From contig CAVUHC010000002.1 in NCBI GenBank assembly GCA_963741135.1, forward strand, positions 255,413-319,412: DNA of 64,000 bases, written 5' to 3'. Source of the stretch: an uncultured Acidobacteriota bacterium (lineage in GTDB: Bacteria; Acidobacteriota; Vicinamibacteria; Vicinamibacterales; UBA2999). The position numbers and the translations under genes are program-made. Position 1 is the first letter of the stretch. Every line of letters begins with the position of its first letter. This document shows, piece after piece, positions 7,794-56,637 of this stretch. The notes under the pieces are model-generated. The model saw only the letters and a list, made by a program, of their open reading frames with translations. It ran no database searches and was not told the origin of the DNA.

Positions 7794-8432
7794 GTGCCCA
7801 GCGCTGTCGTCGTACGCGAGCTCAGCGAGGCGGATCTTCAGTCTGCCGTCGGAATCGTCGCGCGCGGGATGCGAGACAACCCGCTCCACATCGCGGCACT
7901 CGGCGCCGATGCGGAGGTTCGCGGCAATCGATTGATCCGTATGTTCGGCGTGGCGCTGCCGTTGATCTTCTCCAAGGGCGTTCTGCTTGGCGGGTTTCAG
8001 GACGGCACGCTCGTCGGAATTGCCGGCATGGTGCCGCCGGGGAAATGCCAGCCATCGATGAAGGAGAGGATCACCCTCGTCCCGCGCATATTCCCTGCGG
8101 TCGGCGGGGGCGCGTTCGCGCGCGTCGGGCGATGGATGGGGACGTGGGCGCAACACGACCCCGCGGAGCCCCATTGGCACCTCGGACCGGTTGCAGTCGA
8201 GGCGCATTTGCAGCGGCGAGGCATCGGGAGCCTGCTCATGAGCGAGTCTTGCGCGCGTCTGGATCGCGCGCGCGCCGTCGGCTATCTCGAAACGGACAAA
8301 CCGACGAGCGTGACCTTTTACGAACGGTTTGGATTCGAGACGATCGGCTCGGGGCCCGTGCTGAACACACCGAACTGGTTCATGCGGCGGGCTTGCTTGG
8401 AAAATCCCATTGGAGTTTACCTTACTGACTGA
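7794..8432 (+). CDS. GNAT family N-acetyltransferase
   Basis: Acetyl-CoA binding motif region LQRRGIGSLLM and C-terminal YERFGFE. Confidence 0.75.
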   Translation: MPSAVVVRELSEADLQSAVGIVARGMRDNPLHIAALGADAEVRGNRLIRMFGVALPLIFSKGVLLGGFQDGTLVGIAGMVPPGKCQPSMKERITLVPRIFPAVGGGAFARVGRWMGTWAQHDPAEPHWHLGPVAVEAHLQRRGIGSLLMSESCARLDRARAVGYLETDKPTSVTFYERFGFETIGSGPVLNTPNWFMRRACLENPIGVYLTD

Positions 8433-11400
8433 GAGGCGCCAGTCGAGGTGCTGTGGCACCTGCCCCGGACCCGGGCATCACCGTGAGCTCGGTGGTCTCA
8501 CCGTTCTTCACTTCAACCGATTGCCTTCGCTCACCGAAGGCCGCATCCTTGACGACCACTTCACGCGTGCCGATCGCAACGGGCATGGCGTCGAGCGGCG
8601 CGACGCCGGCACGGTCCCCTTCAATCCACACTTCCGCTCCCGGCGTTGTCGTCACGTGCACCCTGCCTGACGGCAGCGCAAGGGTGTGGGCCGTGACCTG
8701 CCCGGGACGAATCGTCAGCGCGACCGTCGATCGGAAGTTGAATCGCTCGCTGACAAACTCGATCTTGTGACTGCCGGCGTTGAGCAGGAGCTGCCCGTCC
8801 TCGGTGGTACCGATACGGCGGCCATCGGCGAACAGGTCCATCGGGATTCGCGAGAACGCCAGAAGAAAGCCGCCTACGGCTGCGCCCGGCGCCTGAGCAC
8901 CGGGGCCGGGGGTGGCGGGACGATTCGTGGTCGCTGAGCTCTGGCGACGCGCCGCGCGCTCCGCCGTGACCAGTGCGTTCTTGACGGCCGGCGCCGCGGC
9001 AACGGCAGCATCGGCGGCCTTCGTCGCCGCCTCGCCCGCGGTGTCAGCCCACTTGGAGGAGGTCTTCACGGTGGATGAAAACATGCCGGGGAGCCAGATC
9101 ACACCGGCGCCGATCACGATCGCGAGGACGATCGCACCAGCGACCAGATCCCACCGGACGCGATCCCACTGGATGTGCGGAATACGCGACACGAAGGATG
9201 GGTCAGCCGGCTGCTCCAATGGCTCTGTGTGGACCTGATCCGGCCCACTCGCCTGCCGGCTCTCCGCCTCGGCGCGGAGCATGGCCACTTCAGCGGCGAG
9301 TCGTAGGTTTGCCTGGGCGCGAATGCGCTCGGTTTCAGACGCGAGTGCCTTTTCCGCGGCGGCTCGAGCGGTCTCCGCCGCCTCGATCCGGATCCGATTC
9401 ACGTCGAGCGCGGCCTGCTGGTGCGCGTGGCGGGCCTGTTCTGCCTCACCACGAGCGCTGGCAAGCTCCGCCTCGAGGCGGGCCTCGTTTTCGGACTGTG
9501 CCCGGGATCCGCGCGCCAGCTGCACATCGCTCTCGGCGCGCGCGCGCGCGACCGCAGACTTGATCTGTGTGTCGGCGTCAGCCTTGACGCGCGCAATCTC
9601 GGCAGCGAGAACTCGCGCCGCTTGCGCTTCAGCCGCAAGGCGCGCTTCTGTGACCGCCGCCGCGCGCGCCGCGTCGGCTTCGGCTTTGACCCGCGCGATC
9701 TCCGCTTCGCGCGCATCCCCCGCCTCCAACTCGGCCGTCAGGAGCGCTTCTTCAATGGCCCCTGCCCGCGCAGCCTCGGCCTCGGTCTTCATCCGCGCGA
9801 TCTTGTTTTCTGCGTCTCGGGCCCGCGCGACGGCGGCTTCCGCCGCCTTCTGTGCCTCTTTGACCGCGGCGGTGCGCAACGCGGCGGCTTCGGTGCGCGC
9901 GAGGGCAACCGCGGCCTGAACCTGCGCCTCGGTGTCCGCCTTGACGCGCGCAATCTCGGCTTCGAACACGCGCCTCGCATCCCCTTCAGCGGAAAGGCGC
10001 GCTTCCTCGACTGCCGCCGCCCGAACCGCATCGGTTTCGGCGTGCGTGCGTGCGACCGCGGCCTCGACTTGCACCTCGGTGTCCGCGTTGACACGCGCAA
10101 TCTCGGTTTCAAGAATGCGCTTCGCTTTTCCTTCAGCGGCAAGGCGCGCTTCGTCGACCGCCGCCGCGCGAACCGCGTCGGCCTCGGCGTGCGCGTGTGT
10201 GACCGCGGCCTGGACCTGCACGTCGGCCTCGGCCTTGACGCGCGCAATCTCGGCTTCGAGAACGCGCATCGCTTCCGTTTCAACGACGCGGCGCGCGTCG
10301 TCGACTGCCGCCGCGCGAACCGCGTCGGCCTCGGCGTGCGCGCGCGTGACCGCGGCCTGGACCTGCACGTCGGCCTCGGCCTTGACGCGCGCAATCTCGG
10401 CTTCGAGAACGCGCATCGCTTCCGTTTCAGCGTCACGGCGCGCGTCGTCGACTGCCGCCGCGCGAACGGCGTCAGCCTCGGCGTGCGCGCGTGCGACCGC
10501 GGCCTGGACCTGCACGTCGGCCTCGGCCTTGACGCGCGCAATCTCGGCTTCGAGAACGCTCATCGCTTCCGTTTCACCGGAAAGGCGCGCTTCGTCGACT
10601 GCCGCTGCGCGAACCACGTCGGCCTCGGCGTGCGCGCGTGCGACCGAGGCCTGGACCCGCAGGTCGGCGTCGGCCTTGACGCGCGCAATCTCGGACTCGA
10701 GAACGCGCGTCGCTTTTCTTTCAGCGGCAAGGCGCGCTTCGTCGACTGCCGCCGCGCGAACCGCGTCGGCCTCAGCGTGCGCGTGTGCGACGGCGGCCTG
10801 GACCCGCACGTCGGCGTCGGCCCTGACGCGCGCAATCTCGGACTCGAGAACGCGCGTCGCTTCCGTTTCGGCGACACGGCGCGCGTCGTCGACTGCCGCC
10901 GCGCGAACCGCGTCAGCCTCGGCGTGCGCGCGTGCGAGCGCGGCCTGAACCCGCACGTCGGCGTCGGCCTTGACGCGCGTCATCTCGGAATCGAGAACGC
11001 GCATCGCTTCCGTTTCACCGGCAAGGCGCGCCTCTTCGACCGCCACCCCACGCGCCGCGTCGGCTTCTGCTCTGACCCGCGCGATCTCCATGTCGCGCGA
11101 ACGCATCGCTTCCGACTCGGTCGTCGTGCGCGCTTCCTCGACGGCCGCCGCCCGCGCAGCACCGGCCTCGGCCTTGATCCGCACGATCGCTGCTTCTGCT
11201 TCTCGTGCCCGCGCTTCGGCGGCTTCCGCCGCCCTCTGCGCCTCTTCGACCGCGGCGGTGAGTGATGCGTCGGCTTCGGTGCGCGCGCGCGCCAGCCGTT
11301 CGTCTCCCTCCCGCTCGGCCTGCGCTTGCGTCTCTCCAAGCTTCGCGGTCAGCGCCTCCTCCGCCTCGGTTCGCACGCGTGCCACTTCCGATGCGAGCTG

Positions 11401-12144
11401 CTGCTCCGCCTCTTTCCTTACCTGTTCGAGCTCCGCAGCCAGCGCCTCGCGTGCCGCGGCTTCCGCTCCGGCGCGCGCATCGCTCACCGCCGACTCGCGC
11501 TGCGTCGCCGCCTCACTTTCGATCCGCGCGAGGTCCTGCTTGCGCTGCTCCTCGGCCTCGTCGGCCATGCGTGCAAGCTCGCGCGCCCGTTGGAGTGCGC
11601 CTTCTGCCTGTACCCGCTCGAGCTCGGTCTTCAGTCGGAATTCGACCTCGGCCTCGATCAGCGAGACATCGGCCGAACGCATACCGGCCTCGACGGGGGC
11701 AACCGGGGGGACTTCCGCGACCCGCTTTGCCCGCGCGTTCTCTGCCGCGGTGAGCAACGTGTCGACCGTCCTTTCGAACGACGCCACCTCGGTGCTGGTG
11801 TTTTCGGCACCCTTCCTTCGAAACGGATTCGGAAAGCCGGATTTCTGTGGTGGTACTGCGTTCGCCAGCGACGGGATGTCGAGCGTGCGGACCTGTGCCG
11901 AGTCCGCCAGAGAGCGCAAATGCGTGCCGATCTTGACCCGCTGGTCCTGTGGGACCTCTCGGCCGAACAGGACAAGGTCAGGCACGCGCTGATTCATCGC
12001 CACGATCGCCGCATAAGCGGACGTGACGATGACGAGCTCGGCGCCGAGTTTCGTGTGAACGACGGAACCGAGCGGATCCGCGTGGGAGGAATCCGGCTCG
12101 ATCGCCAGCACTAGGTTCATATTGCGGAACATTGAGCGGGGCAA
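8422..12144 (-). CDS. 1240-aa membrane protein: receiver-like N-terminus, about 900-aa Ala/Glu/Arg coiled coil with 49-aa tandem repeats, one TM helix, C-terminal PEGA-like domains
   Basis: Intact ORF. The N-terminus resembles a CheY fold but has PDLVLFG where the phospho-acceptor D is expected. TM helix VAGAIVLAIVIGAGVIWLPGMF. The C-terminus has two beta-rich PEGA-like modules. Confidence 0.7.
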   Translation of the reverse strand: MPRSMFRNMNLVLAIEPDSSHADPLGSVVHTKLGAELVIVTSAYAAIVAMNQRVPDLVLFGREVPQDQRVKIGTHLRSLADSAQVRTLDIPSLANAVPPQKSGFPNPFRRKGAENTSTEVASFERTVDTLLTAAENARAKRVAEVPPVAPVEAGMRSADVSLIEAEVEFRLKTELERVQAEGALQRARELARMADEAEEQRKQDLARIESEAATQRESAVSDARAGAEAAAREALAAELEQVRKEAEQQLASEVARVRTEAEEALTAKLGETQAQAEREGDERLARARTEADASLTAAVEEAQRAAEAAEARAREAEAAIVRIKAEAGAARAAAVEEARTTTESEAMRSRDMEIARVRAEADAARGVAVEEARLAGETEAMRVLDSEMTRVKADADVRVQAALARAHAEADAVRAAAVDDARRVAETEATRVLESEIARVRADADVRVQAAVAHAHAEADAVRAAAVDEARLAAERKATRVLESEIARVKADADLRVQASVARAHAEADVVRAAAVDEARLSGETEAMSVLEAEIARVKAEADVQVQAAVARAHAEADAVRAAAVDDARRDAETEAMRVLEAEIARVKAEADVQVQAAVTRAHAEADAVRAAAVDDARRVVETEAMRVLEAEIARVKAEADVQVQAAVTHAHAEADAVRAAAVDEARLAAEGKAKRILETEIARVNADTEVQVEAAVARTHAETDAVRAAAVEEARLSAEGDARRVFEAEIARVKADTEAQVQAAVALARTEAAALRTAAVKEAQKAAEAAVARARDAENKIARMKTEAEAARAGAIEEALLTAELEAGDAREAEIARVKAEADAARAAAVTEARLAAEAQAARVLAAEIARVKADADTQIKSAVARARAESDVQLARGSRAQSENEARLEAELASARGEAEQARHAHQQAALDVNRIRIEAAETARAAAEKALASETERIRAQANLRLAAEVAMLRAEAESRQASGPDQVHTEPLEQPADPSFVSRIPHIQWDRVRWDLVAGAIVLAIVIGAGVIWLPGMFSSTVKTSSKWADTAGEAATKAADAAVAAAPAVKNALVTAERAARRQSSATTNRPATPGPGAQAPGAAVGGFLLAFSRIPMDLFADGRRIGTTEDGQLLLNAGSHKIEFVSERFNFRSTVALTIRPGQVTAHTLALPSGRVHVTTTPGAEVWIEGDRAGVAPLDAMPVAIGTREVVVKDAAFGERRQSVEVKNGETTELTVMPGSGAGATAPRLAPLSQ
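9939..11115. repeat. 147-bp tandem repeat, at least 8 copies, inside the 1240-aa gene
   Basis: The CCTTGACGCGCGCAATCTCGG anchor (a few copies carry 1-2 substitutions) recurs at 9939, 10086, 10233, 10380, 10527, 10674, 10821 and 10968, exactly 147 nt apart. Adjacent central copies look roughly 90-95% identical by eye. Degenerate copies flank the array. Confidence 0.95.
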
Positions 12145-12269
12145 TTGACGTGCCGCCTGGTTCTGCGGCGAAACAGCACAGTAGACGGTTTTTGCTGACG
12201 ATTTCCGTACGCATATGACGGATCTGAAACAGCGGATCCGCTTCGGACGTCCGGCTGAAGGTCCCGGTG

Positions 12270-12350
12270 TAGGTTCGGCTGCCCGCCTACGCGCTTTGCG
12301 CTACGGCGAGGTCTCGCCGAAGCCTCGGCGAAGGCGGAAAGCCGGACGCT
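12270..12350. repeat. REP-like family B element (CCGCCTTCGCC / GCTACGGCG core), copy i
   Basis: Shares GGCTGCCCGCCT(A/C)CGCGCTT...CTTCGGCGAAGGCGGAAAGC with 17197-17290. Lies just downstream of alaX. Confidence 0.75.
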
Positions 12351-16150: not shown

Positions 16151-16235
16151 GATTCGGGATCAGGATTCGGGACTCGGGATTCGAGACTGGCCTGGGGGAT
16201 TCGAATCCCGAATCCCCAATCCCCAATCCCGATTG
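16151..16235. repeat. Hairpin of tandem heptamers (GGATTCG)n / (CGAATCC, CCCCAAT)n
   Basis: Arms at 16151-16185 and 16194-16235, in the divergent region between queE and the DUF72 gene. Confidence 0.85.
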
Positions 16236-16247
16236 TAAGATGCCCCA

Positions 16248-17316: not shown

Positions 17317-17885
17317 CGATCCGATCGGTGACGGCGAGCTTCCGGACGACATCCATGCCGGAAATGACCTGGCCGAAGACGGTGTACTGACCGTTCCATT
17401 TCGGCTGCGCCGAGAGCGAGATGAACATCTGGCTGTCGGCCTCGCGTGCATCGCCGGCGTGTGCCATCGAGACCGAACCCGACCTGGTGCAGACGCTTCT
17501 TGCTGAACTCCGCGGCGCCGATTGATTTTCCGCTGCCGGCGTCGAAACCGCGCCCCCACCACGCCTGCTTCGTCATGTCGCGCGTCTGCGGATCGCCGAA
17601 CTGGACGAGCTGCCCCGGAACGATGCGAAGGATGCGCTGGCCGTTGTAGAAGTTGCGCTTGATGAGCGCGAGGATGTGATCGACGGTCTTCGGTGCTTCG
17701 TTCGGATACGTCTCGATCTCGATCGTGCCCTTCATCGTCTCGATGACGAAGACTTGACCGGCGCCTGGCGATTTCTGCGCCGCCGGGACCGGCGCGGGAG
17801 CCTTCGTGGCTGCAGTGGTCTGTGCGAGCGCCGGCACTGAGACCGTGAGCGTAACAATGACCGCCAGCCATATTGTTCGAATCAT
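17282..17885 (-). pseudogene. Secreted cyclophilin-type peptidyl-prolyl isomerase; one frame break near 17470
   Basis: Signal peptide plus FVIETMKGTIEIETYPNEAPKTV...NFYNG in the 17070-18293 frame, then SMAHAGDAREADSQMFISL...YTVFGQV in ORF 17282-17467. The ATG overlaps the nth stop (ATGA). Confidence 0.85.
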
Positions 17886-18601
17886 TTCTCGCTCCTTCGC
17901 AGAACCCCCTGAACCCCCTGAACCCTTTGAACCCTTTGAACCCCAATTCTTGGGCATTCGGTAGCGATCACGCAATCCCCGCAGCGAGGTCCGATCGGGC
18001 GGCAGACGTTCTGCCCCCACGTGACCAGATAGAGGTTGATATAGGGCCACCACCGGGCGTCGGTCGCCCGGTAGAGCGCCTGCTCCGTTTCGTCGGGGAG
18101 CTTCGTCGTGACCCAGCCAAGGCGATTCGAGATACGGTGCACGTGCGTATCGACACAGATGTTCCGGAGGCTCTTGAAGCCGAGAATCATCACGAGGTTG
18201 GCCGTCTTGCGGCCGACGCCCGGCAGCATCACCAGCTCCTCCAGCGTGGACGGCACGCGGCCGCCAAAGCGCTCGAGGAGCATCTGGCAGCACGCCTTCA
18301 CGTGGCGAGCCTTCGTGCGGTAGAAGCTGACCGGGTAGATCAGCTTCTCGATCTCCTTCACAGTCAGCCTCGCCATCGTCCGCGGCGTGCGCGCCTTGCG
18401 AAAAAGGCGCGTTGACGCCGCGTGGGTCGTTGCATCCTGCGTGCGCGCCGAGAGGAGTGTCGCGATCAGGATCTGAAACGGATCTTCGGCCTGCTCTTCA
18501 GAAATCTTCTCGACCGCAGGCAGCTCGAGGCCGGTGATCGCGACCGCAAGCGAGCGCATGACGTTCTCGACAACAACTGGAGACGGCTTACGCGCGCCCA
18601 T
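17882..18601 (-). CDS. nth: Endonuclease III
   Basis: HhH LPGVGRKTANLV and the 4Fe-4S motif CRPIGPRCGDCVIATEC. The C-terminal tail VQRVQRVQGVQGV is encoded by a 9-mer repeat. Confidence 0.9.
   Translation of the reverse strand: MGARKPSPVVVENVMRSLAVAITGLELPAVEKISEEQAEDPFQILIATLLSARTQDATTHAASTRLFRKARTPRTMARLTVKEIEKLIYPVSFYRTKARHVKACCQMLLERFGGRVPSTLEELVMLPGVGRKTANLVMILGFKSLRNICVDTHVHRISNRLGWVTTKLPDETEQALYRATDARWWPYINLYLVTWGQNVCRPIGPRCGDCVIATECPRIGVQRVQRVQGVQGVLRRSEK
17902..17946. repeat. Tandem 9-mer (GAACCCCCT/GAACCCTTT) x5 inside the nth 3' end
   Basis: Read directly. It is in frame (9 nt equals 3 codons). Confidence 0.9.
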
Positions 18602-18644
18602 TGAACGTCTGCCACCAGGAACACGAAGACGAATTGGCCACAAA

Positions 18645-18713
18645 GGACACAGCGCGGCCAACGCCGCAACCAAACCGATGACAGGTCGGGGCAGCGTTGG
18701 CCGCGCTGTGTCC
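18645..18713. repeat. Perfect 20-bp inverted repeat with a 29-nt loop upstream of nth
   Basis: GGACACAGCGCGGCCAACGC (18645-18664) against GCGTTGGCCGCGCTGTGTCC (18694-18713). Confidence 0.9.
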
Positions 18714-19038
18714 AAAGGACGCTGTCACGCTAGTGACACTAACGCGCCTCTTTGTCAAAAAAAACAAACTTCGGCGCGTCAGTGTCACAAAGGTCGGGTT
18801 ACTTTGACTATTCAGCATACCAGCCCGAGCCTGTGAGGCCGATGTACGATCGCCGACGCGTATCTCTACGTCGACAGCCGTTCACCCGGCGGCGGTCGAC
18901 AAGCCTTCAACGGCCGCCCTTTTGCGACGAGCCCCGCGCGAAAAACATTCGTCTCGCAGTCACAGGATGCTGCTCGATCCGCAGCAGGTGGCCACAATTT
19001 CAGTACGGCCCGGCCCGTCTTGCCCCTCGATTGATAAG

Positions 19039-36981: not shown

Positions 36982-37803
36982 CAGGCGAGCGAGCTCCGCG
37001 CCTCCTCGGCCCGGCGCATCCGCCGGCGGCGGTGGCCGAGCAGCGTGTGTCAGCCGCGTCCGCAGCCCCTCGGCGGACAGGTGGCGCTCGAGATCGCCGC
37101 CCATCGCGAGGGAGATCGCGCCCGTCTCCTCGGACACGACGATCGGCAATCGCGTCGTTCTCTTCGGTGAGGCCGAGCGCCGCGCGGTGCCGCGTTCCGA
37201 GATCGCGGCTGACGCGCGGATTCACCGACAGCGGCAGGAAGCAGGCGGCCGCCGCAATGCGATCGCCCTGGACGATGACGGCGCCGTCGTGCAGCGGCGA
37301 GGCGGGCTGGAAGATGCTCGCGAGCAGATCGTAGGTGAACATCGCGTCGAGCGGAATGCCGCCCTCGATGTAGTTGCGAAGCCCGATCTGCCGCTCGAGC
37401 ACGATGATCGCGCCGATGCGGCGCGCAGACAGCGTGCGTCGCGGCGACGACGAGCTCCTCGATCGTTTCGTCGGCCTGCTCCGCGCGCTCGAAGTACCGA
37501 AAGAACGGCGCGCGGCCGAAGTGCGCAAGCGCACGCCGGATGTCGGACTGGAACAGCACGATGATCGCGAACACGACGTACGCGGCCAGGTTGCGAATCA
37601 CCCAGTTGACCGTCTCGAGCTGCAGCCACTGCGACAGGAAGTACAGCGCGAGCAGGAAGCCGCCGCTCAACGCCATCTGCACCGCGCGCGTGCCGCGAAT
37701 GAGCAGCAGCAGCTCGTAGACCAGGAACGAGACGATGGCGATGTCGAGAGCGTCCGACCAGGCGATGTGCGGGACGCGCGGAGCAGCTCGTCAGCCAGTT
37801 CAT
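36981..37803 (-). pseudogene. cdaA: Diadenylate cyclase CdaA (DisA_N); at least 3 frame breaks
   Basis: Three N-terminal TM helices, then GAIIVLERQIGLRNYIEGG, PLHDGAVIV, GTRHRAALGLTE and VVSEETGAISLA, in three frames. ATGA overlap with folP; TGATG junction with cdaR. Confidence 0.85.
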
Positions 37804-38607
37804 GAGTCGACGCGATGATACCGCCGAATCTCGTCGGCGACGCGCGCCACCTGAAGCATTTCGCTCGACGGCATGGACGCGGACGATATGTGCGCCGGCG
37901 AGCACCGCAGCCGTGACCGCCGCCGCCGTCGCCCAGTCACGTTCGACGCCGCCGGCACGCGTGCGCCGAGCGCGCGGGCGAGGAACGATTTCCGCGACGG
38001 ACCGACGACGAGCGGGCCGTCCAAGCTCGCTGAATTCGTCGAGGCGCGCGAGCGCCTCGAAGCTGTGAGGCGCCTCCTTCGCGAATCCAAGCCCCGGATC
38101 GACGAGGATGCGATCCTTGCGCGACGCCGGCGCCGGTGGCAAACGCCATGCTCTCGCGCAGCTCGTCGAGCACCTCCGCGACGACGTCGCCGTAGGACGC
38201 CTGCTGATACATGTCGCGCGACCGGCCGCGCGTGTGCATCAGGACGATCGCGGCGCCGCGCCGGGCCACGACGTCGGCCAGCTCCGGCTCGTAGCGCAGA
38301 CCGCTGATGTCGTTGACGATGGACGCGCCCGCGGCAAGCGCTGCGTCGGCCGTCGCGGCCTTGTAGGTGTCCATGGAAATCGGCACCGTCGACGCGACCG
38401 GCCAGTCCCTCGATGACCGGAATCACGCGCCGCCGCTCCTCCGCGTCGTCGACGATCGCGGCGCCGGGGCGCGTCGACTCACCGCCGACGTCGATGATGC
38501 CGGCGCCCTGCTCCACCATCCGCACGCCCGCCTCGATCGCCGTCGGCGGGATCGAAAAGCTCGCCGCCATCGGAAAAGGAATCCGGTGTCACGTTGACGA
38601 CGCCCAT
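37800..38607 (-). pseudogene. folP: Dihydropteroate synthase; at least 4 frame breaks
   Basis: MGVVNVTPDSFSDGG, GAGIIDVGGESTRPGA, ISMDTYKA, IVNDISG, DPGLGFAK and VGPSRKSF in alternating frames. The start may lie further upstream (to about 38660). Confidence 0.85.
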
Positions 38608-38698
38608 GATCACCGTGCGATCACCGAATACCAGCGCCTGCCCACCGGGAGTGGAACCGTGAATCGACGCCGCGGATTCACGCTTTGAACACTACAAC

Positions 38699-38807
38699 AA
38701 GTTCGAAGGTCGAAGGTCGAGGTGCGAAGTAAGTTCGAAGTACAAAAGAAAGGCCCGTGAAACGACGGGCCTACTTCACTTCGAACTTCGAACTTCGAAC
38801 TTCGAAC

Positions 38808-38808
<1 letters not shown>
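38699..38808. repeat. Palindrome with (GTCGAAG)n / (CTTCGAA)n heptamer arms
   Basis: Arms at 38699-38744 and 38773-38808, flanking a canonical terminator hairpin. Confidence 0.9.
38741..38772 (-). terminator. Intrinsic terminator downstream of ftsH
   Basis: On the minus strand: AGGCCCGT-CGTTTC-ACGGGCCT followed by TTCTTTTGT. Confidence 0.75.
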
Positions 38809-40729
<1,921 letters not shown>

Positions 40730-40760
40730 TTGCCTCCCAACAAACGGGTTATCAAGAGTA

Positions 40761-41760
40761 TCACTTCGACGCGGGCTTCTGCTGTACTAAGACCAGCTTT
40801 CCGCGCCGAAGTTCCACGCGTCCCCCCGGAACCTCGGCCCCACGGCAGGCTCCCCCAAGGACAGCCATTACCGCCTCCACATGGTCCAGGGCAATTTCGC
40901 GACCTCCCGCCCCGGCCCGCAGAGCACGCAGCAGCACCCGCCTCCGGATGGCAAGTGGCTCCGCCGCGATTGCTGATGCATCAAGCGTGACCCCATCGGG
41001 CCCAACCTCCGCCAACACGCCGTATCGCTCTTCCGCCAACTCATCGAGCCACTGCCCGTCCTCCCGCACGAGGCCCGCAGTCCGGGCAATCGCCGGCCGG
41101 GTTGGTCCGCCAGCCGCGGCATCGAGCTCCGGCAGCACTACGTGGCGAATCCGGTTCCGAGGGTTTTCGAGGTCAGCGTTCGTTTCGTCCTCGATCCACC
41201 GCTCGCCGTGCTCCGACAGGTGGCTGCGAAGGTCCGCGCGCGATACGTCCAGCAGCGGGCGAATCACTCGACCGCGTCGCGGATAAATGCCCGCCAGCCC
41301 AGTCAACCCTGCGCCCCGCATCAACTTCAGCAGGAAGGTTTCGGCCTGATCGTCCTGCGTATGGCCCACCGCGATGCGGTCGGCGCCCAGGGCATCGGCC
41401 GAGCTCTCCAGGAAGTTGTATCGGATCCTGCGGGCCGCATCTTCTACCGACAGATTTCGACTGCGGGCATACCCTTTGACGTCAGCGCTTTCCACCACGA
41501 TTCGGAGGTGGAGCCGATCGGCCAATTCGCGGCAAAACGCCTCGTCGCCCCCCGCCGAGGGGCGGAGCTGGTGGTTGAGGTGGGCGACCCCGGCAACACT
41601 GAACCCGCCGTTTTCGGCGAGCTCGCGGAGCAGGAAGACGAGCGCCACTGAGTCCGAGCCACCGGAGAGCCCGATCGAGCACACTGCTGCCGGATGGGCA
41701 GAGCTCATGACGCTCGATGGTCTTTCGAACGCGTTGGTGAAGAGCGGTCAATTCGTCCAT
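40761..41760 (-). pseudogene. tilS: tRNA(Ile)-lysidine synthetase; one frame break near 41690
   Basis: PP-loop SGGSDS in ORF 40761-41708. The N-terminus MDELTALHQRVRKTIERHEL is in ORF 41482-41793. Confidence 0.85.
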
Positions 41761-41777
41761 CCGGCTCCGCCTCCGAG

Positions 41778-41841
41778 CCGCCAACCTTCGCATGGCTTGC
41801 CAACCGTAGCTCCGCGTCTCGCAAGCGTGAGCGAAGGTTGG
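41778..41841. repeat. REP-like family B related hairpin immediately 3' of the tRNA
   Basis: CCAACCTTCGC...GAGCTACGGTTGGCAAGCC...GCGAAGGTTGG on the minus strand. The outer stem includes the tRNA CCA end. Resembles 57176-57285. Confidence 0.6.
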
Positions 41842-41915
41842 TGCCGGAGGGCAGACTCGAACTGCCGACCCCGCGCTTATGAGACGCGTGCTCTAACCGG
41901 CTGAGCTACTCCGGC
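41839..41915 (-). tRNA. tRNA with CAU anticodon (elongator Met-like; Ile2/lysidine type not excluded), CCA encoded
   Basis: Hand-folded cloverleaf: acceptor GCCGGAG/CUCCGGC, D arm GCUC-AGCCGGUUA-GAGC, anticodon arm CGCGU-CUCAUAA-GCGCG, variable loop GGGUC, T arm GGCAG-UUCGAGU-CUGCC, A73, CCA. G1-C72 excludes an initiator. Confidence 0.9.
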
Positions 41916-41933
41916 ACGAATTACCGATCTTAG

Positions 41934-42036
41934 TAGGGGGAAGGGGTTAGGGGAAGGGGGAAGGGCTGTGCCAGGCAGGAGGATTCAGGTCTAAGTCCTG
42001 AGATAGCCCTTACCCCTGCCCCTTCCCCCTAACCCC
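41934..42036. repeat. Hairpin with (GGGGTTA/GGGGGAA)n arms, short-loop copy
   Basis: Arms at 41934-41969 and 42005-42036 with a 35-nt loop. The right arm supplies the last codons and stop of the upstream gene. Confidence 0.85.
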
Positions 42037-42977
42037 TCTCAATGACCGCCGCCGCGATGAGAGGGATCAGGATTTCGTGGTGGCCGATCAGTGAAATGCC
42101 GGTGCCGTTCGTCCCGGCGACGGGGCGACTTACCACATTCGTCTGCGGGCGGTACATCCGCATGAAATCGATATTGACCGTCGTCAGCCCCTCGAGGGAG
42201 ACTCCCTTGTTTCGGGCGAGCGCCACGGCCTTGAGAAACACCTCCGGAAGAATCACCGCCGACCCGCAGTTCAGATACACACCACCCGTCAGTTGCGCAA
42301 CGCAGGTCGTGAAGTAGCGAAAGTCACGAAGGCTGGTCTCGCCGATGTCGGCGCCCGATGCGGCCGGGTGCATGTGAATGATGTCGGTCCCGAGCGCGAC
42401 GTGGACGGTGATGGGAATGCCGAGCCGATGGGCGGCGACCGACAGGCTGCGCGCCGCATGCGGCGGATTGCTCCGTGCGAGAAACTCCGCGACGCCTTCA
42501 CCGAGCCCCTTTCGCGCGGCACGCGCGGCGGCAATGGCTTCGTTCAACTGCGTGCCCGTCTCGTCCGCCATCCCGAACCGGCCCGGACCGAGCGCCTCGT
42601 CGACATCCTCGGACGTGGCGCCGCGACAGCGCGATCTCGAAGTCGTGAATGATGCCCGCGCCGTTCATCGCAAGCGCGGAAACGTAGCCACGTTCCATGA
42701 GATCGATCAGCACCGGCGAGACGCCGGTCTTGATGACATGCGCGCCAATCCCCCAGACGATCCCCGCGCCGCGCTTTTCCGCGGCAACGAGCGCATCGAC
42801 GACGCGACGAACGTCCGCCGCGCCCAGGATGGACGGCAGCGAATCAAACCAGGTCTTGAATGAACTGCCCGCCGCGACAGGCCGCGCGAAATCCTCTGCG
42901 CGCGCCTTACTCTGCCGCGACGCGAGCGGATATGTGCGGACGCCGGACAGATCAAATTCTTCGTAGCGAAATGGCAT
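42029..42977 (-). pseudogene. Conserved hypothetical protein (possibly deoxyhypusine-synthase-like fold); one frame break near 42590
   Basis: ORF 42498-42977 (...GAHVIKTGVSPVLIDLMERGYVSALAMNGAGIIHDFEIAL) continues as GATSEDVDEALGPGRFGMADETG... in ORF 42029-42571. Family recall is weak. Confidence 0.35.
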
Positions 42978-42987
42978 GGCGCAACAT

Positions 42988-43052
42988 TAGTAGGGGTTAG
43001 GGGTTAGGGGGAAGGGGTTAGGGGGAAGGGCTGTGAAGGGGGAAGTGCTGTG
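42988..43052. repeat. GGGGTTA-family arm (left) flanking the four-helix-bundle gene
   Basis: TAGTAGGGGTTAGGGGTTAGGGGGAAGGGGTTAGGGGGAAGGGCTGTG, inverted relative to 43601-43652. Confidence 0.85.
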
Positions 43053-43195
43053 TAGGCAGAAGTCATTAGGCGGGCGCGCGTAGTTTCGGAAGACTCCCAG
43101 CGCGTTTCATGTCGCAACGTTTGCGACCTATCCCCGGATAGCGAAGGATATCGGCCGATTTTCGAGCGGCAACCTTCATGCGAATCGCCTTTCCC

Positions 43196-43564
43196 ATGAC
43201 CGACATCAACTCGTTCCGCGATCTGTTTGTTTGGCAGAAATCGATGACGCTCGCTGAGCACTGCTATCTACTGACGAAGCGCTTCACACTCGACGATCAA
43301 CTAGTGCTTGGACGTGAGATCCGCAAGTCGTGTGTCTCCATTCCATCGAACATCGCCGAAGGGTTCGGCCGACATCACACGCTGGAGTACGTGCACCATC
43401 TTCGATACTCGACTGGTTCTAACAACGAACTTCAAACACAGGTAGAGCTCGCGAAGCGGGTCAAGATCATCCGTGTCGACGAAGCAAAGACGATCATCGG
43501 AGATGCCGAAGAAGTCGGGCGGATGCTGAACGGGTTGATCGGCTCGCTTGAGCGGGGGCGATGA
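43196..43564 (+). CDS. Four-helix-bundle protein (formerly '23S rRNA intervening-sequence protein'; Avd-like family)
   Basis: FRDLFVWQKSMTLAEHCY...IPSNIAEGFGRH...Y..HLRYSTGSNNELQTQ, typical of this family. Local GC is about 50% (one 60-nt hand count). Confidence 0.8.
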   Translation: MTDINSFRDLFVWQKSMTLAEHCYLLTKRFTLDDQLVLGREIRKSCVSIPSNIAEGFGRHHTLEYVHHLRYSTGSNNELQTQVELAKRVKIIRVDEAKTIIGDAEEVGRMLNGLIGSLERGR

Positions 43565-43600
43565 CGAGTCGTGACTGAATCCTTCCGACTTGTGCCAAAG

Positions 43601-43652
43601 ACAGCCCTAACCCCTAACCCCTAACCCCTAACCCCTAACCCCTTCCCCCTAA
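43601..43652. repeat. GGGGTTA-family arm (right), (CCCTAAC)x5
   Basis: ACAGCCCTAACCCCTAACCCCTAACCCCTAACCCCTAACCCCTTCCCCCTAA. Contains the queA stop codon. Confidence 0.9.
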
Positions 43653-44764
43653 AGGATCAGCATGGCATCCCCATAGCTGTAAAAACGGTATTGATTGTTG
43701 ACTGCCTCGCGGTACGCGGCAAGAATTCGTTCCCTGCCGGCAAGCGCCGAGACCAGCATCAAGAGTGAGGATTTCGGCAGATGGAAGTTCGTGATCATGC
43801 CATCGACCAGTTGAAACCGGTGGCCGGGGCGGACGAAGAGCGGAGTGTCGCCGCTGGCGGGCATGACGTCTCCATCCTCGCGGACGACGAGTGATTCGAG
43901 AGAGCGCACGCTTGTCGTCCCGACGGCAATGATGCGGCGACGCTCCCGTTTCGCGCGCGTCAGGGCGGCGGCGGTTTCGACCGGAACGATGAATCGCTCT
44001 GGATCGATGACGTGGTCCTCGACGCGATCGACTTTGACCGGCTTGAACGTGCCGTAGCCGACGTGCAGGGTCACCTCAACCCGCTCAACGCCGCGTCGCG
44101 CGAGCGATGCCAGCTGCTCGGCGGTGAAATGGAGTCCGGCCGTCGGCGCCGCCACCGATCCCCGCTCGCGCGCATAAACGGTCTGGTAGCGTTCCTTGTC
44201 CGACCCCGTATCGCCGCGTTTGATGTAGGGCGGCAGCGGAATGTGCCCGACGCGATCGATTGCATCTGCAATCCCACCAGGGTGGTCGGTCCAGAGACGG
44301 ATGGTCCTGCGACCTTGGAAGTGCATCGTGAGCACCTCACCGTGGACCGCAATGCCGGCGCGTTCGAACGCCATCCGCGCCCCTGGTTTTAGTTTTTGTC
44401 CCGGGTGAACCAGGGCGTCCCATAGGTGGGGATCCGGGATCGGGGATCCGGGATCCGGAACGACTCCTAGGGAGTTGGGAGTTGGAGGTTGGGAGTTGGA
44501 AGTTGGGAGTTGACGGAGTAACAGACATTCAACACTCCCGCCGCTCGGTACGCGACGGCCAAGCAGACGCGCGGGAAAGACGCGTGTGTTATTGACGACG
44601 AGCAGGTCGCCTGGAACCAGGTACTCCGCTAGATTCGCGAACGCCGTGTGTTCGATGCCACCGGTGAGATGCACGACAAGCAGACGAGATCCGCCGCGCT
44701 CCTTCGGCGGCTCCTGCGCGATCAGCGCATCTGGCAGCTCGAAATCGAATTCGTCAACGTTCAT
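43649..44764 (-). CDS. queA: S-adenosylmethionine:tRNA ribosyltransferase-isomerase, carrying an in-frame repeat-derived insertion
   Basis: Intact 371-aa ORF. FDFELPDALIAQ, PLPPYI, YQTVYA, AAPTAGLHF, VGTTS, TNFHLP and FFSYGDAMLIL-type motifs are all present. Confidence 0.95.
   Translation of the reverse strand: MNVDEFDFELPDALIAQEPPKERGGSRLLVVHLTGGIEHTAFANLAEYLVPGDLLVVNNTRVFPARLLGRRVPSGGSVECLLLRQLPTSNSQPPTPNSLGVVPDPGSPIPDPHLWDALVHPGQKLKPGARMAFERAGIAVHGEVLTMHFQGRRTIRLWTDHPGGIADAIDRVGHIPLPPYIKRGDTGSDKERYQTVYARERGSVAAPTAGLHFTAEQLASLARRGVERVEVTLHVGYGTFKPVKVDRVEDHVIDPERFIVPVETAAALTRAKRERRRIIAVGTTSVRSLESLVVREDGDVMPASGDTPLFVRPGHRFQLVDGMITNFHLPKSSLLMLVSALAGRERILAAYREAVNNQYRFYSYGDAMLIL
44427..44513. 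repeat. (GGGATCC)n plus (GGAGTTG)n heptamer tracts inside the queA CDS
   Basis: Encodes PTSNSQPPTPNSLGVVPDPGSPIPDPH between the conserved LLLRQL and LWDALVHPG blocks. Confidence 0.9.
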
Positions 44765-47951: not shown

Positions 47952-48589
47952 AAAGGCTGCAGCTTTGGCGGCCTCTGTCCATGTCTGACCGCGCCGGCGA
48001 TCGGCACGTACGGCAGTTCGAGGCCCGCCGCGGCGCGGCGGAGCATGAGTCCGCCGCGACTCATGTCTCCCCTGCCGACGAAGTCGGAAGGAAACATGAG
48101 GCGCTCGCCAAAAATCGGCAGCAGCAGATCGACGTACTTGCCGGACGCAACGCTGCCAAGCAGCACGACCTCGCACTCGGTACCGATGGTCGACAGCAGC
48201 GCCCGCGCTGCCTGCTCCAGCGGCGCGCGATACTTGACGTTGCGCAGATCGATATCCACCTCGGCAAAGCCGCGAAACGCGTCAATCGTGACCGGCGTGT
48301 CGGCAGACCTGAGGCCTGCGTTCGGCGTGATGACCAGAACACCCCCGGCGGCCACAGGTTCAGACGGGTCCGGTGGGCGCGCGAACCGCCGCGCGTACGC
48401 CAGTTTTCCGCGAAAGTACAGACCGCTGACGAAGCTGAACACATCGCCAAGAGGCGCACCAGTCGCGCTTTGCAGCTGCCAGGCGAGGTCGAAGCCGGCT
48501 TTCGGCGAAACCATCAACCGCGCGCGGATGCCGCCGCAGTTCGCGGGCGAGAGAAGAAAGACACGTGAGGGACCAGGGGTCGGGATCAT
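47915..48589 (-). CDS. Conserved-looking hypothetical protein (224 aa)
   Basis: ORF from MIPTPGPSRVFLLSPANCGG. No family recognised. Both termini are encoded by repeat arms. Confidence 0.45.
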   Translation of the reverse strand: MIPTPGPSRVFLLSPANCGGIRARLMVSPKAGFDLAWQLQSATGAPLGDVFSFVSGLYFRGKLAYARRFARPPDPSEPVAAGGVLVITPNAGLRSADTPVTIDAFRGFAEVDIDLRNVKYRAPLEQAARALLSTIGTECEVVLLGSVASGKYVDLLLPIFGERLMFPSDFVGRGDMSRGGLMLRRAAAGLELPYVPIAGAVRHGQRPPKLQPLTTKFTKNPKIT

Positions 48590-48654
48590 TACGAGAATCG
48601 AAATCGTACTGGGGTGACGACCTGCATTTCGATTCTCGTAATGACTCCCGACCC
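48576..48654. repeat. Hairpin element GGGGTCGGGA(T/G)TCATTACGAGAATCGAAAT, copy 1
   Basis: 29-nt arms and a 21-nt loop. The arms are near-identical to copy 2 but the loop is unrelated. Confidence 0.9.
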
Positions 48655-49119
48655 TTATCCAACCGTCGCAATCAGCCACCCGGCAACAATGAACGGGACC
48701 GCGGCAATCACCACGACGAGCAGGATCATCGCGACGACGAAGAGCCAGTCGCCGGCGCTGGCGCGGTGCTCCTCGTAGGCATGACGCTCCAGGAGCGCAA
48801 GGTTCATCTGGCTCGATTTCCACGCGAAGTCGAACAGATCCCCGGCGACCGGTATCGCGCCGATGAGCGCATCGATTGCAGCATTGAAGATCATGCGAAG
48901 CTGGACGACCTTCGGGATCCCGAGGTCGCGGCCCTGCCACAAAACGCCGATAGTGAAGAGCGGTGAGGCGAGATCGCCGATGATCGGCACCAGGCCGATG
49001 ATCGGATCAAGCCCGATGCGGTAGGTCGTGCCGGGCACGACGAAGGCCGAGTCCAGCAGCTCGGAGAGATACCGAAGCGCCTTGAGACGCTGCTCCTGAG
49101 GTGGTGTCAAAGACCTCAA
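48655..49119 (-). CDS. DUF4112-like small membrane protein
   Basis: LDPIIGLVPIIGDL...AIPVAGDLFDFAWKSS. A TTG start at 49119 gives about 154 aa. The longer ORF reads through the repeats. Confidence 0.65.
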   Translation of the reverse strand: MRSLTPPQEQRLKALRYLSELLDSAFVVPGTTYRIGLDPIIGLVPIIGDLASPLFTIGVLWQGRDLGIPKVVQLRMIFNAAIDALIGAIPVAGDLFDFAWKSSQMNLALLERHAYEEHRASAGDWLFVVAMILLVVVIAAVPFIVAGWLIATVG

Positions 49120-50157: not shown

Positions 50158-50238
50158 GGGGTCGGGAGTCATTACGAGAAGCGAAATGGCGGTCGGCGTT
50201 GCAACACGATTTCGATTCTCGTAATGACTCCCGACCCC
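50158..50238. repeat. Hairpin element GGGGTCGGGAGTCATTACGAGAAGCGAAAT, copy 2
   Basis: See 48576-48654. Confidence 0.9.
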
Positions 50239-54695: not shown

Positions 54696-55295
54696 TCATC
54701 GCATCAATTCCCGGAGCGCGCTCCTGAGTGCATCCTCGAATGTGGTGCCGCCATCCGACGTGTGACTGGCATCCACGGCCTTTTCGGCCAGCGGGCGATG
54801 ATAGCCCAGGTTCTCGAGCGCCGAGATGAGGTCGTTGCGCAGACGATCGCCGGTTGACGGCTGAACGCCTTCGGCTTCTGGTGCCGGCGCGACGTCCTCG
54901 AGCCGATCCTTCAGCTCGAGCACCATTCGCTCCGCTGTCTTCTTGCCGACACCAGGAATCCGCGTCAGACGCGCAACGTCGGCACGCTGCACCGCGACGA
55001 CGAGCTCACGGCTGTCGATCCCCGACAGGACCGCAATCGCCAGCTTCGGACCGATTCCGCTGATCGCGATCAGCCGTTCGAAGAGCAGCTGCTCGAGCGG
55101 CGTGAGAAATCCAAACAGCTGCAGCGTGTCTTCGCGCACGTGCGTGTGCACGCGCAGCGACACATCCGATCCGACTTCACCGATCTCGTAGTAGGTGGAC
55201 AGGGGCACGTGGACTTCGTAGCCGACGCCGCTCACGTCGAGGATGATCCGGTTCGGAAACTTGTCGAGAACCCGTCCTCGAAGAAACGCAATCAT
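54696..55295 (-). CDS. ruvA: Holliday junction DNA helicase RuvA
   Basis: MIAFLRGRV..., HhH motifs ([21 protein letters not shown]). Confidence 0.95.
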
Positions 55296-55890
55296 CCGTG
55301 GGTGGGAGGACGGTACTGGCGCCAGGTGCGGGGCTGGCGCCTGTCAGGGATCGGGGATCCGGGATCGGGATCCGGGGATCCTGATCCCTGATCCCTGATC
55401 CCTGATCCCCGATCCCGGCCGGCGCCATCGAATGCATATGGCAGATCGCGACGGCCAGCGCATCGGCGGCGTCATGTGGCGTTGGCGCGGCGGCGAGACC
55501 GAGGAGCAGCTTCACCATCTGCGCCACCTGGTGCTTCTCGGCGCGACCGTACCCGACGACCGCGCGCTTGATTTCAGCTGGCGTGTACTCGACCACCTCG
55601 CAGCCCGCTTCGATCGCGGCAAGCATCGCCACGCCACGCGCGTGACCGAGCTTCAACGCGCTGCGGACGTTCGTCGCGTGGAAGAGATTCTCGATGGCGA
55701 CGCAGTCAGGGTGAAGCGACGCAAGGAGCACGGAGAGCTCGGCGTGAATCCGGGCAAGGCGGTGTGGAAACGAGTCGGCCTGGCGCGCGGTAATTGCGCC
55801 GCAGGCTACGAGGTGATGCCGGCGTCCATCCGTCTCCACGCAGCCGTAACCGGTGCGTTCGGAGCCAGGATCGATGCCGAAGATTCTCAC
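55177..55890 (-). CDS. ruvC: Holliday junction resolvase RuvC; C-terminus reads through a repeat, true stop probably ATGA-coupled to ruvA at about 55292
   Basis: MRIFGIDPGSERTGYG...HDAADALAVAICH. As written the ORF overlaps ruvA by 118 nt. A +1 frame ends in GGATGATT, overlapping the ruvA ATG. Confidence 0.9.
   Translation of the reverse strand: MRIFGIDPGSERTGYGCVETDGRRHHLVACGAITARQADSFPHRLARIHAELSVLLASLHPDCVAIENLFHATNVRSALKLGHARGVAMLAAIEAGCEVVEYTPAEIKRAVVGYGRAEKHQVAQMVKLLLGLAAAPTPHDAADALAVAICHMHSMAPAGIGDQGSGIRDQDPRIPIPDPRSLTGASPAPGASTVLPPTDDCVSSRTGSRQVSEPDHPRRERRRLRSPRAPVHLLRDR
55344..55417. repeat. Palindrome of (GGGATCN)n heptamers inside the ruvC 3' end
   Basis: CAGGGATCGGGGATCCGGGATCGGGATCCGGGGATC|CTGATCCCTGATCCCTGATCCCTGATCCCCGATCCCGG. 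Confidence 0.9.
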
Positions 55891-56637
55891 GCGAGGGAGG
55901 CCTCGATCTCCTTCTCCTCGATGTCGAAGTTCGCCCAGACGTGCTGGACGTCATCGTGGTCCTCGATCGCTTCCATCAGCCGCAGCATCTGCTGCGCTTC
56001 CTTGCCAACGAGCTTCACGTAATTCTTCGGCACCATGGCGATCTCCGCGCTGGCCGCCTCGACACCGAGCGCCTTGACCGCCTCGCGCACGGTCTCGAAG
56101 TTGGCGGGCGCGCACACGATTTCCCAGGCGCTGTCGTCGTCGTTCAGGTCGTCGGCGCCGGCGTCGAGCACTGCAGCAAGGAGTTTCTCTTCGTCGATTT
56201 TCCCCTTCTCGACGAAGACCTGTCCCTTTTTCGAGAACAGCCACGCCACGCTGTTCTCTGCGGCCAGAGTTCCCCGCGTGCTTGCCGAGCATGTGGCGGA
56301 TTTCTCCGACCGTGCGGTTCTTGTTGTCAGTAAGGGTTTGAATCAGGACCGCGACGCCGCCGGGACCGTAGGCCTCGTACGTGATTTCCTCGTACGAGAC
56401 GCCCGGTTCCTCGCCCGTGCCGCGGCGAATGGCGCGCTCGATGTTCTCGCGCGGCATGTTGGCCGCCTTGGCATCGGCCACGATCGTCCGCAGGCGCGGA
56501 TTCATGTCGACATCGCCACCCCCGGCGCGGGCGGCCACGGACAATTCCTTGATGATGCGGGTGAAGACCTTGCCGCGCTTCGCGTCCGCGGCGCCCTTCT
56601 TATGCTTGATGGTTGCCCACTTGGAATGGCCTGACAT
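55887..56637 (-). pseudogene. YebC/PmpR family transcriptional regulator; one frame break near 56285
   Basis: [14 protein letters not shown]... in ORF 55951-56637; the C-terminal half is in ORF 55887-56249. GTGA overlap with ruvC. Confidence 0.9.

Follow-up and report, generated by a model that had tools for sequence, protein, structure and literature searches.

The gene queA, which encodes tRNA preQ1(34) S-adenosylmethionine ribosyltransferase-isomerase (QueA), was found to carry two neighbouring runs of 7-base repeats within its coding sequence in a 64,000-nt stretch of DNA from an uncultured Acidobacteriota bacterium (contig CAVUHC010000002.1, positions 255,413 to 319,412; the whole stretch is referred to as the window). 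This segment is probably a composite heptanucleotide microsatellite situated in the codons of a permissive loop of QueA, with no discrete mobile element involved. Codons 85-114 are made up, on the coding strand, of (CAACTCC)x6, a spacer of 11 nt and (GGATCCC)x4, which keep the reading frame, contain no stops and add ~24 amino acids to the enzyme (Table 1). Unit by unit the coding strand reads CGT, CAACTCC CAACTTC CAACTCC CAACCTC CAACTCC CAACTCC and C TAGGAGTCGTT CC, followed by GGATCCC GGATCCC CGATCCC GGATCCC, CAC CTA and TGG. The proximal tract starts in register with codons Q85 (CAA) and L86 (CTC), and translation of the open reading frame (ORF) gave the residue order GGSVECLLLRQL-PTSNSQPPTPNSLGVVPDPGSPIPDPH-LWDALVHPGQKLKPG around the insert. 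Tandem Repeats Finder (TRF) reported the tracts on the + strand as (GGGAGTT)x6.1 (period 7, 83% matches) and (GGGATCC)x4.3 (period 7, 91% matches). An earlier note, made from the sequence alone, had described the region 44427-44513 as two abutting heptamer tracts that preserve the frame and contain no stops; sequence, TRF and ORF all agree with this description, and the insert peptide quoted there is exact.

The tracts hold at least about four head-to-tail units of 7 nt, far above chance. Their double-unit words were over-represented 10-40 times in the window relative to shuffled sequence: GGGAGTTGGGAGTT, allowing <=2 mismatches, occurred 10 times against 0.25 expected and GGGATCCGGGATCC 18 times against 1.2 expected, counts reached in 0/100 shuffles for either word. 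The proposal that the same words occur in intergenic elements was borne out, with GGGAGTTGGGAGTT recurring at four intergenic arrays (31041, 31103, 33769 and 49125) and GGGATCCGGGATCC at three (16203, 55347 and 58443). A second copy of the queA spacer was not found in the window at <=3 mismatches. The distal tract is self-complementary, GGATCC being a palindrome, and is predicted to form a hairpin in both RNA and DNA folds (z-scores -2.45 and -2.2); it was the sole self-pairing part of the window allele in these folds, the allele as a whole not being palindromic. A regular expression for canonical G-quadruplex motifs (G3+N1-7, four times) matched the template (+) strand at 44428-44452, the G-rich strand of this candidate being d(GGGGATCCGGGATCGGGGATCCGGG).

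Host gene and site of insertion

The 371-residue product of queA matched the Pfam family PF02547 (Queuosine_synth) from end to end (residues 4-370 against positions 2-322 of the 322-position profile, E 1e-126) and matched the solved structures 1yy3, 1vky and 1wdi at E 6e-92 to 8e-84. QueA is therefore intact and colinear with characterised QueA proteins, as had been claimed, and the full-length match is consistent with an in-frame, stop-free insertion into an ORF that was kept intact. Purifying selection acts on queA apart from the loop: outside it, the ratio of nonsynonymous to synonymous divergence (dN/dS) was 0.08-0.16 against nine relatives, with dS up to 1.1-2.0. These ratios indicate that the gene is functional in the tract-bearing lineages.

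HMMER alignments to the solved QueA structures break exactly at the insertion site, with 2 unaligned residues in 1vky of Thermotoga maritima against 26 in the window QueA, and 4 in 1yy3 of Bacillus subtilis against 28. The figure of 4 residues given earlier for Thermotoga QueA was thus roughly right, that number belonging to the B. subtilis protein. When loop length was defined uniformly, as the stretch between the point where the LLL strand ends and the conserved W, it came to 31 residues in the window and to 6-9 residues in 63 distant QueA genes among the matches listed (exactly 7 in 59 of the 63). This distant set (~45% identity, mostly Firmicutes) was used as the outgroup baseline; no acidobacterial genome was present among the matches listed in the genome-collection scan with the QueA protein. 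None of the 63 distant orthologues carried a homologous non-repetitive segment at the site, in agreement with a lineage-specific insertion.

Judged from its position in the sequence, the turn at the insertion site is probably a beta-hairpin turn of the small beta-barrel domain. This domain is inserted in the alpha/beta catalytic domain and is described as unlikely to contact S-adenosylmethionine (PMC1282579). An AlphaFold2 model built from 47 close homologues had a mean predicted local distance difference test score (pLDDT) of 60 and a template-modelling score of ~0.5 to 1yy3, and was used solely for the order of strand, coil and strand. It placed a strand at residues 77-86, a coil at 87-112 (26 residues) and a further strand at 113-119, and the best Foldseek matches of the model were the QueA entries 1yy3, 1vky and 1wdi. 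In this low-confidence model the insertion maps to what would be a surface loop. As regards the surface loop suggested in the earlier note, the loop is supported by the 2-4-residue turn in 1vky and 1yy3 and by the strand-coil-strand order, whereas its exposure is presumed from a model of low confidence.

Allelic variation among relatives

Relatives were represented by the best 120 homologues (68-90% identity), comprising metagenome proteins and a few NCBI proteins from metagenome-assembled genomes labelled Vicinamibacteria or Acidobacteria; P and L numbers below denote their proteins and loci. Long heptamer-derived loop peptides were present in 104/120 and corresponded to four repeat words: PTSNSQL to (AACTCCC)n, IPNPKSQ to (AAATCCC)n, IPNPESR to (GAATCCC)n and IPDPGSR to (GGATCCC)n. 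A two-unit remnant, 'PTSN', was all that was found in 13/120 (the P0014-P0026 group, 348 aa), and 3/120 had no tract (P0052, P0092 and P0105). Loop length ranged from 7 to 53 residues among the homologues, one large subgroup being fixed at 17 residues.

True heptamer arrays were seen in the DNA of L114, L115, L083, L098, L113, L117, L126 and L127. Their words differ, with (GAATCCC)7 in L114, (CAAATCC)5 in L115, and (CAACTCC)n plus (GGATCCC)4 in the window and L083. All arrays start at positions 2-3 of the ancestral 7-residue loop, and the word fits the local codons, CAA-CTC (Q-L) going with CAACTCC and CAA-ATC (Q-I) with CAAATCC. The number of units at this orthologous site is polymorphic (L081, L083, L098, L113, L126 and L127): as read in DNA, proximal tracts comprise 2, 4 or 6 units, and probably 9 in P0004 and P0006, judging from peptides that are 7 aa longer, while the distal tract has exactly four units in the window, L083, L098, L113, L126 and L127. 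Units within an array are still 83-100% identical although dS between the genes reaches 1.1-2.0, which indicates that array periodicity has been renewed and not merely inherited. Further material is nested in some loops, including four copies of the 9-mer GAACCCCCT between the tracts of L098 (the same 9-mer forms an array at 17902-17944 of the window), an insert of 66 nt in L117 and a duplicated insert of 27 nt in L120. The L119 (P0116) allele is a complete inverted pair, (CAACTCC)4-CAAAACG-(TTGGGAG)4, which is in frame and has exactly the form of the intergenic hairpin elements.

The presence/absence polymorphism that the earlier note had called for was found. L081, a 348-aa allele with the loop RELPTSNR, shares 95.9% identity outside the loop with the tract-bearing L083 (368 aa). 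L081 retains two units (CGT GAA CTC CCA ACC TCC AAC CGC), and the more distant alleles compared (window, L098 and L113) all have long tracts; on these grounds the L081 allele is the product of a 60-nt in-frame deletion, to which the two-unit remnant of the 13 short homologues is likewise ascribed.

Two classes of tract-bearing allele were distinguished by their junctions. In L126 and the window (class II), six proximal units are followed by a 14-nt spacer and the junction is read Q/L-G-V-V, whereas in L127, L113, L083 and L098 four proximal units are followed by a 19-nt spacer and the junction is read P-R-S/N. The junction CCCAAGGAG (CCCTAGGAG in the window) is common to both classes and is translated in different frames. 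Frameshifts have been compensated between the classes, two additional units (+14 nt) being offset by a spacer that is 5 nt shorter (-5 nt), a net difference of +9; with the loop set aside, L126 shares 92-96% identity with L127 and L113.

Proposed history and alternative explanations

We propose that the tract belongs to a lineage-wide population of arrays, mostly G-rich and of GGGA(N3) type, whose other members occupy intergenic DNA or the ends of genes. Units of 7 nt would be gained and lost, and variant units homogenised, through replication slippage or unequal recombination, so that the array at this one codon would come to be (CAACTCC)n, (CAAATCC)n, (GAATCCC)n or (GGATCCC)n depending on the lineage. 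As 7 and 3 share no factor, an array that is stop-free in one frame would be stop-free in all and would encode the same proline-rich 7-residue peptide in three frames; in simulation, each heptamer array did give one and the same 7-residue peptide in all three frames. Changes of one or two units would survive only if the spacer or the other tract acquired an indel that restored the frame, or if three units changed together. Purifying selection on QueA would filter the variants and leave a hypervariable, probably disordered loop that the enzyme tolerates.

Several points weigh against this history. Slippage is deduced from the alleles and was itself not observed, the neutrality of the loop is an assumption, and the structure model is of low confidence (mean pLDDT 60). 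Very different words are found in relatives only ~12% apart, and the tract-less loops of P0092 and P0105 (RHIDAND and RQLDANE) match the ancestral 7 aa exactly in length and contain no trace of a repeat, the alleles nearest to these two having unrelated words; such findings could mean repeated independent colonisation instead of one ancient tract with turnover. The full inverted pair of L119 fits insertion or conversion from a hairpin element better than simple slippage. The window and L126 share a class-II spacer yet are only 87% identical elsewhere, so that recombination must also have been involved. Parsimony on a neighbour-joining tree gave no preference between a single gain plus losses and multiple gains, the large majority of the sequences being tract-bearing. 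The data accommodate either a single ancient colonisation, after which words turned over and the tract was lost three or four times, or a series of independent ones.

We consider unlikely an alternative in which a mobile palindromic element resembling Rickettsia palindromic elements (RPEs) or MITEs (transposable elements of the miniature inverted-repeat type), or a gene-conversion copy of an intergenic hairpin, was inserted in the queA loop, possibly repeatedly, and the tracts are its remains. The same words do occur in intergenic inverted-array hairpins, the L119 allele is such a pair in frame, relatives at ~88% identity carry unrelated words, and two tract-less alleles have a loop of ancestral length. 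An array-bounded cassette beside queA, described below, is present or absent among relatives, so that cassettes of this kind evidently come and go, and RPEs show that in-frame colonisation is possible (PMC10969869). Set against this, the queA segment has no conserved non-repeat core or fixed length, and inspection by eye showed no flanking direct repeats that would mark a target-site duplication. No discrete multi-copy element of fixed length was recognised, the spacer being unique in the window and loop length varying between 7 and 53 aa; the two tracts joined in the window allele are not complementary to each other; 'CCCAAG', which looked like a shared junction, is found at the end of nearly all arrays of this kind; the arrays all start at the same codons, with a word that matches the local residues; and the gene of the neighbouring cassette is single-copy in the window. 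We regard as also unlikely a process that is genome-wide and sequence-specific and that creates or re-seeds arrays at the queA loop, which would have been colonised several times, with QueA going off and on over evolutionary or population time. Such a process may be linked to the hairpins with heptamer stems, some of which enclose a 23S_rRNA_IVP (Avd-like) gene, and, because the peptide is the same in all three frames, a conserved enzyme with paired arrays could go through states in which its frame is shifted and then regain function. A further alternative, a contingency switch in which slippage by one unit turns QueA, and hence tRNA queuosine, off and on by phase variation, seems very improbable. 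In its favour, the unit length is not divisible by three and a simulated change of 1 or 2 units in either tract truncated the window QueA at 96-144 aa, a single-unit change thus abolishing the product in silico. Removal of one proximal unit brought the reading into a TAG that lies one frame off within the spacer, while QueA stayed full-length after a change of 3 units or after +1 in one tract with -1 in the other. The fixed compensated changes between alleles that are not multiples of three imply past out-of-frame intermediates, and OFF states could be tolerated, as queA mutants of Escherichia coli are viable. Coexisting ON and OFF variants were not seen among the alleles examined, however. 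A scan of metagenome DNA with a left-flank pattern blind to frame returned 29 loci, 13 of them queA (5 distinct alleles), and none of these 13 contigs nor any other allele read at the DNA level was out of frame, although consensus assemblies may hide minor variants. The tracts are also short (4-6 units, not perfect copies), remnants of ~2 units and of stable length are all that is left in many lineages (for example the 17-residue class), and queA encodes a housekeeping tRNA-modification enzyme with no surface or restriction-modification function.

We give little credence to the view that the proline-rich loop is adaptive, as a contact to tRNA or a partner or as a linker tuning the beta-barrel domain, and that peptide-level selection maintains it. 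Nearly every clade member sampled has kept the tract at this site across dS >1, IPDP or IPNP recurs directly before the conserved W, and there is the large subgroup with a fixed 17-residue loop. Yet the loop varies from 7 to 53 residues, its sequence tracks the DNA word with no conserved motif, four separate groups lack the tract wholly or nearly so with queA under equal purifying selection, and the recurrent peptide motifs are the forced output of any xxATCCC array in any frame. That the tract is an artefact of assembly or sequencing is scarcely credible, even though the window assembly is not free of errors. Five conserved genes are split by single-base frameshifts with similarity unbroken on both sides (window 37051-43000 and ~33950; Table 1), which points to an error-prone, probably unpolished long-read assembly and not to pseudogenes, and relatives' contigs often break at arrays, L081 ending in (TAGGGGT)n. 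Against an artefact, assemblies made independently from different samples (ENA, JGI and NCBI) carry tracts homologous to this one, placed at the same codon. In its DNA, the independently assembled metagenome contig L126 repeats the architecture of the window, with a spacer that is almost identical, and the protein sequences P0004 and P0006 are consistent with this architecture. The exact QueA sequence of the window is on record in NCBI and ENA, on a contig of 809 kb. The exact unit count of the tract rests on one error-prone assembly; the biological conclusion is independent of it, since independent assemblies show the same architecture.

Relation to known repeat systems

Heptameric G-rich GGGNATC repeats have been described in Xanthomonas and Nostoc, with a variable number of units, often four, and a mostly intergenic location near gene ends, 7-32% being intragenic (Rehm et al. 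2015, PMC4692102). Long heptanucleotide simple sequence repeats (SSRs) are known from large, GC-rich genomes (Mrazek et al. 2007, in the form in which PMC4692102 and PMC4679880 cite it). The arrays studied here resemble the Xanthomonas and Nostoc repeats (PMC4692102) in their tandem 7-nt units with a G3-4 run and a sequence that fits the canonical G-quadruplex motif, in a variable unit number that is often about four, in their dispersal through the genome, mostly intergenic near start or stop codons with an intragenic minority, and in the avoidance of the G-rich strand on the coding strand, the template strand being G-rich in queA. They differ in their host, a Vicinamibacteria-like member of the Acidobacteriota, in the coexistence of many words with frequent hairpin-forming inverted pairs, and in the position of the queA tract deep within a conserved enzyme. 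Beyond what is described in PMC4692102, >100 orthologues were followed here, with word turnover and compensated frame shifts.

The earlier note had likened the insertion to RPEs, which are discrete elements of ~150 bp with a family consensus (PMC10969869). As with RPEs, the queA tract is in frame and stop-free in a housekeeping protein, has intergenic counterparts, and occupies a site tolerated by the fold at which presence and absence differ among relatives (PMC10969869). Unlike RPEs, with their family consensus and conserved peptides, it has no fixed length and no consensus beyond the 7-nt units, it varies by unit number, and only the L119 allele is palindromic overall. The likeness therefore holds for the outcome, an in-frame, tolerated and polymorphic loop insertion that shares words with intergenic elements, and fails for the mechanism, there being no discrete element or consensus core, and no overall palindrome in the window allele.

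The in-gene repeat units of Borgs are reportedly multiples of three, whereas the queA unit is of 7 nt, so that single-unit changes shift the frame and must be compensated. PMC9879509 describes perfect tandem repeats of Borgs that, like the queA tract, evolve fast within ORFs and extend proteins by segments that are low in complexity and probably disordered. In contingency loci of Haemophilus and Neisseria (e.g. PMC2651432, PMC12721329), as in queA, an SSR whose unit is not divisible by three lies within an ORF, and the protein would be lost on slippage by one unit; queA differs from such loci in that its tracts are short and imperfect, no OFF alleles were found among those read, and a housekeeping gene is concerned in which the tract is conserved as an in-frame loop over long distances. 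Cyanobacterial short tandemly repeated repetitive (STRR) sequences and the TAACTGA repeats of Beggiatoaceae are a further case of lineage-specific heptamer proliferation in short, mainly intergenic tandem arrays (PMC4679880). Those repeats are intergenic or upstream of starts and have other words and hosts (PMC4679880), in contrast to the persistent in-frame loop of queA. No account of heptamer repeats in Acidobacteria emerged from literature searches.

Heptameric SSRs, a number of them intragenic, and in-frame repeat insertions are thus already known. New are the host lineage, the clade-wide persistence in a conserved enzyme of a unit that is not a multiple of three, the turnover of repeat words and the documented compensation of a frame shift between two adjacent arrays. 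The locus offers a traceable natural case of such a microsatellite surviving for long within a conserved enzyme, and demonstrates that frame shifts in a coding repeat can be compensated by a neighbouring repeat. It also marks a position in QueA that tolerates 0-46 extra residues, which may be of use for engineering or tagging. Vicinamibacteria-like Acidobacteriota are a further lineage with strong proliferation of heptamer arrays, many of them hairpin-paired. Gene calls near arrays need care, given that short-read contigs break there and long-read indel errors adjoin them.

Table 1. Positions of the queA tracts and of other features in the 64,000-nt window
Feature	Position	Strand	Remarks
queA	43649..44764	-	intact 371-aa ORF, hosts both tracts
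Proximal tract, six CAACTCC-type units (+ strand GGGAGTT)	44470..44512	-	encodes QLPTSNSQPPTPNS
Spacer between tracts, non-repeat	44459..44469	-	C TAGGAGTCGTT CC, read L-G-V-V
Distal tract, four GGATCCC-type units	44429..44458	-	encodes PDPGSPIPDP
(CCCTAAC)x7 array adjoining queA	43603..43652	.	TRF; right arm of inverted pair with 42991-43063
23S_rRNA_IVP gene (four-helix-bundle, Avd-like)	43178..43564	+	PF05635, E 4e-31
Frameshifted ArgZ-like gene	~42623		extra C
Frameshifted gene ftsH	~40165
Frameshifted gene folP	37803-38681		3-4 frames
Frameshifted gene cdaA	37051-37778		3 frames
Frameshifted gene pdxJ	~33950

The cassette beside queA

A cassette containing the 23S_rRNA_IVP gene (IVP cassette, 42978-43652) sits exactly between the queA stop and the start of the ArgZ-like gene. 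The queA stop codon, TAG, is the first triplet of the adjoining (TAGGGGT)-type array on the minus strand. The IVP gene is enclosed by an inverted repeat, (TAGGGGT)n/(CCCTAAC)n, termed I1, whose arms of 43 nt are 91% complementary and 566 nt apart, and the cassette is like rRNA intervening sequences in that the loop of its long stem contains an ORF. The relatives L083, L090, L097, L103, L120 and L127 have the cassette; L115, L116 and L118 lack it, with 7-8 nt separating queA from the ArgZ-like gene. The idea that the cassette is a multi-copy mobile element was considered; the window has one copy of the IVP gene, and the copies in relatives are syntenic. Literature searches for IVP genes flanked by repeats returned nothing.

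A hairpin without a gene lies at 41931-42040, beside a tRNA gene (41842-41915, -). The ends of its arms are those of the IVP cassette (TAGTAGGGG...GAAGGGCTGTG / ...CCCTTCCCCCTAACCCCT) and its loop is of 48 nt; it may be a short, empty version of the cassette. The Avd-like neighbour also raised the idea that queA is the target of a diversity-generating retroelement. Against it, the variation consists of unit indels and not of adenine-specific substitutions, and no reverse-transcriptase gene was seen in the ORFs examined around queA.

Arrays elsewhere in the window

The window (64% GC) contains ~20 strict period-7 arrays in 64 kb. Their words include GGGAGTT, GGGATCC, GGGATCA, GGGATTC, GGGATTT, TAGGGGT and GGGGAAG, and there are also arrays without G runs (AATGCAA, GTGATTG and ACTTCGA) and some of 8- and 9-mers. 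Inverted array pairs that would form hairpins occur, for example, at 55347/55383, 38689/38778, 6133/6237, 57600/57685, 41934/42007 and 42992/43601. Apart from those of queA, the arrays lie between genes, upstream of starts or in untranslated leaders, or at 3' ends, so that the population in the window is mainly intergenic or at gene ends; arrays were found just upstream of the starts of queC, queE and a DUF4112 gene. Canonical G-quadruplex motifs in the window fall in arrays in 16/17 cases, including the distal queA tract, and the sole Rfam match on the window was a tRNA. A candidate core shared with intergenic elements, CCAAGAAGC, is common to queA of L083 and the array at window 31041 and was discarded, 'CCCAAG' being the end of nearly every such array.

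Array load was compared with that of the tract-less allele P0133 (loop RHIDAND), for which ~23 kb of syntenic DNA (L121 and L122) contained 2 real heptamer arrays, together forming one hairpin upstream of the DUF4112 gene. Against these 2, there are 15 arrays in the corresponding syntenic part of the window (22.7 kb). Loci of other tract-bearing relatives had 1.5-10 arrays per 10 kb, and distant outgroups none. With one tract-less lineage as its basis, this comparison is suggestive of an association between the queA tract and a high genome array load.

Metagenome contigs of relatives often begin or end in (TAGGGGT)n-type arrays, as at the end of L081 and the starts of L097 and L103; contigs thus break within arrays, indicating that arrays disrupt short-read assemblies. 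The genes queC and queE, for earlier steps of the queuosine pathway, are located 28 kb from queA (window 14744-16358), with heptamer hairpin arrays (15414-15506 and 16151-16232) just upstream of their probable starts. Arrays also reach into the ends of other genes. The last codons of ftsH lie within an (ACTTCGA)4 array (38778-38809), and a gene for an HhH-GPD glycosylase (17882..18724, -) contains a (GAACCCCCT)x4.8 array (17902-17944) six codons before its stop. The ruvC frame (55179-55950, -; Pfam RuvC residues 23-171) reads on through the inverted arrays at 55347-55416 and is stop-free until 56 codons into ruvA, while in L081 ruvC stops ~18 codons past the arrays; RuvC may therefore have a variable, array-encoded C-terminal tail.

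Two repeats of other kinds were noted. A palindrome resembling repetitive extragenic palindromes, of another type than the heptamer hairpins, is present in two copies (GGGGTCGGGAGTCATTACGAGAAGCGAAAT / inverse) at 48570-48660 and 50158-50238, with arms of 30-35 nt and a loop of 21 nt. A 147-nt tandem repeat (8.1 copies, 87% identity) at 9880-11064 lies within an ORF of 1293 codons (8422..12300, -) and is a protein-level repeat of 49 aa, unrelated to the heptamers.

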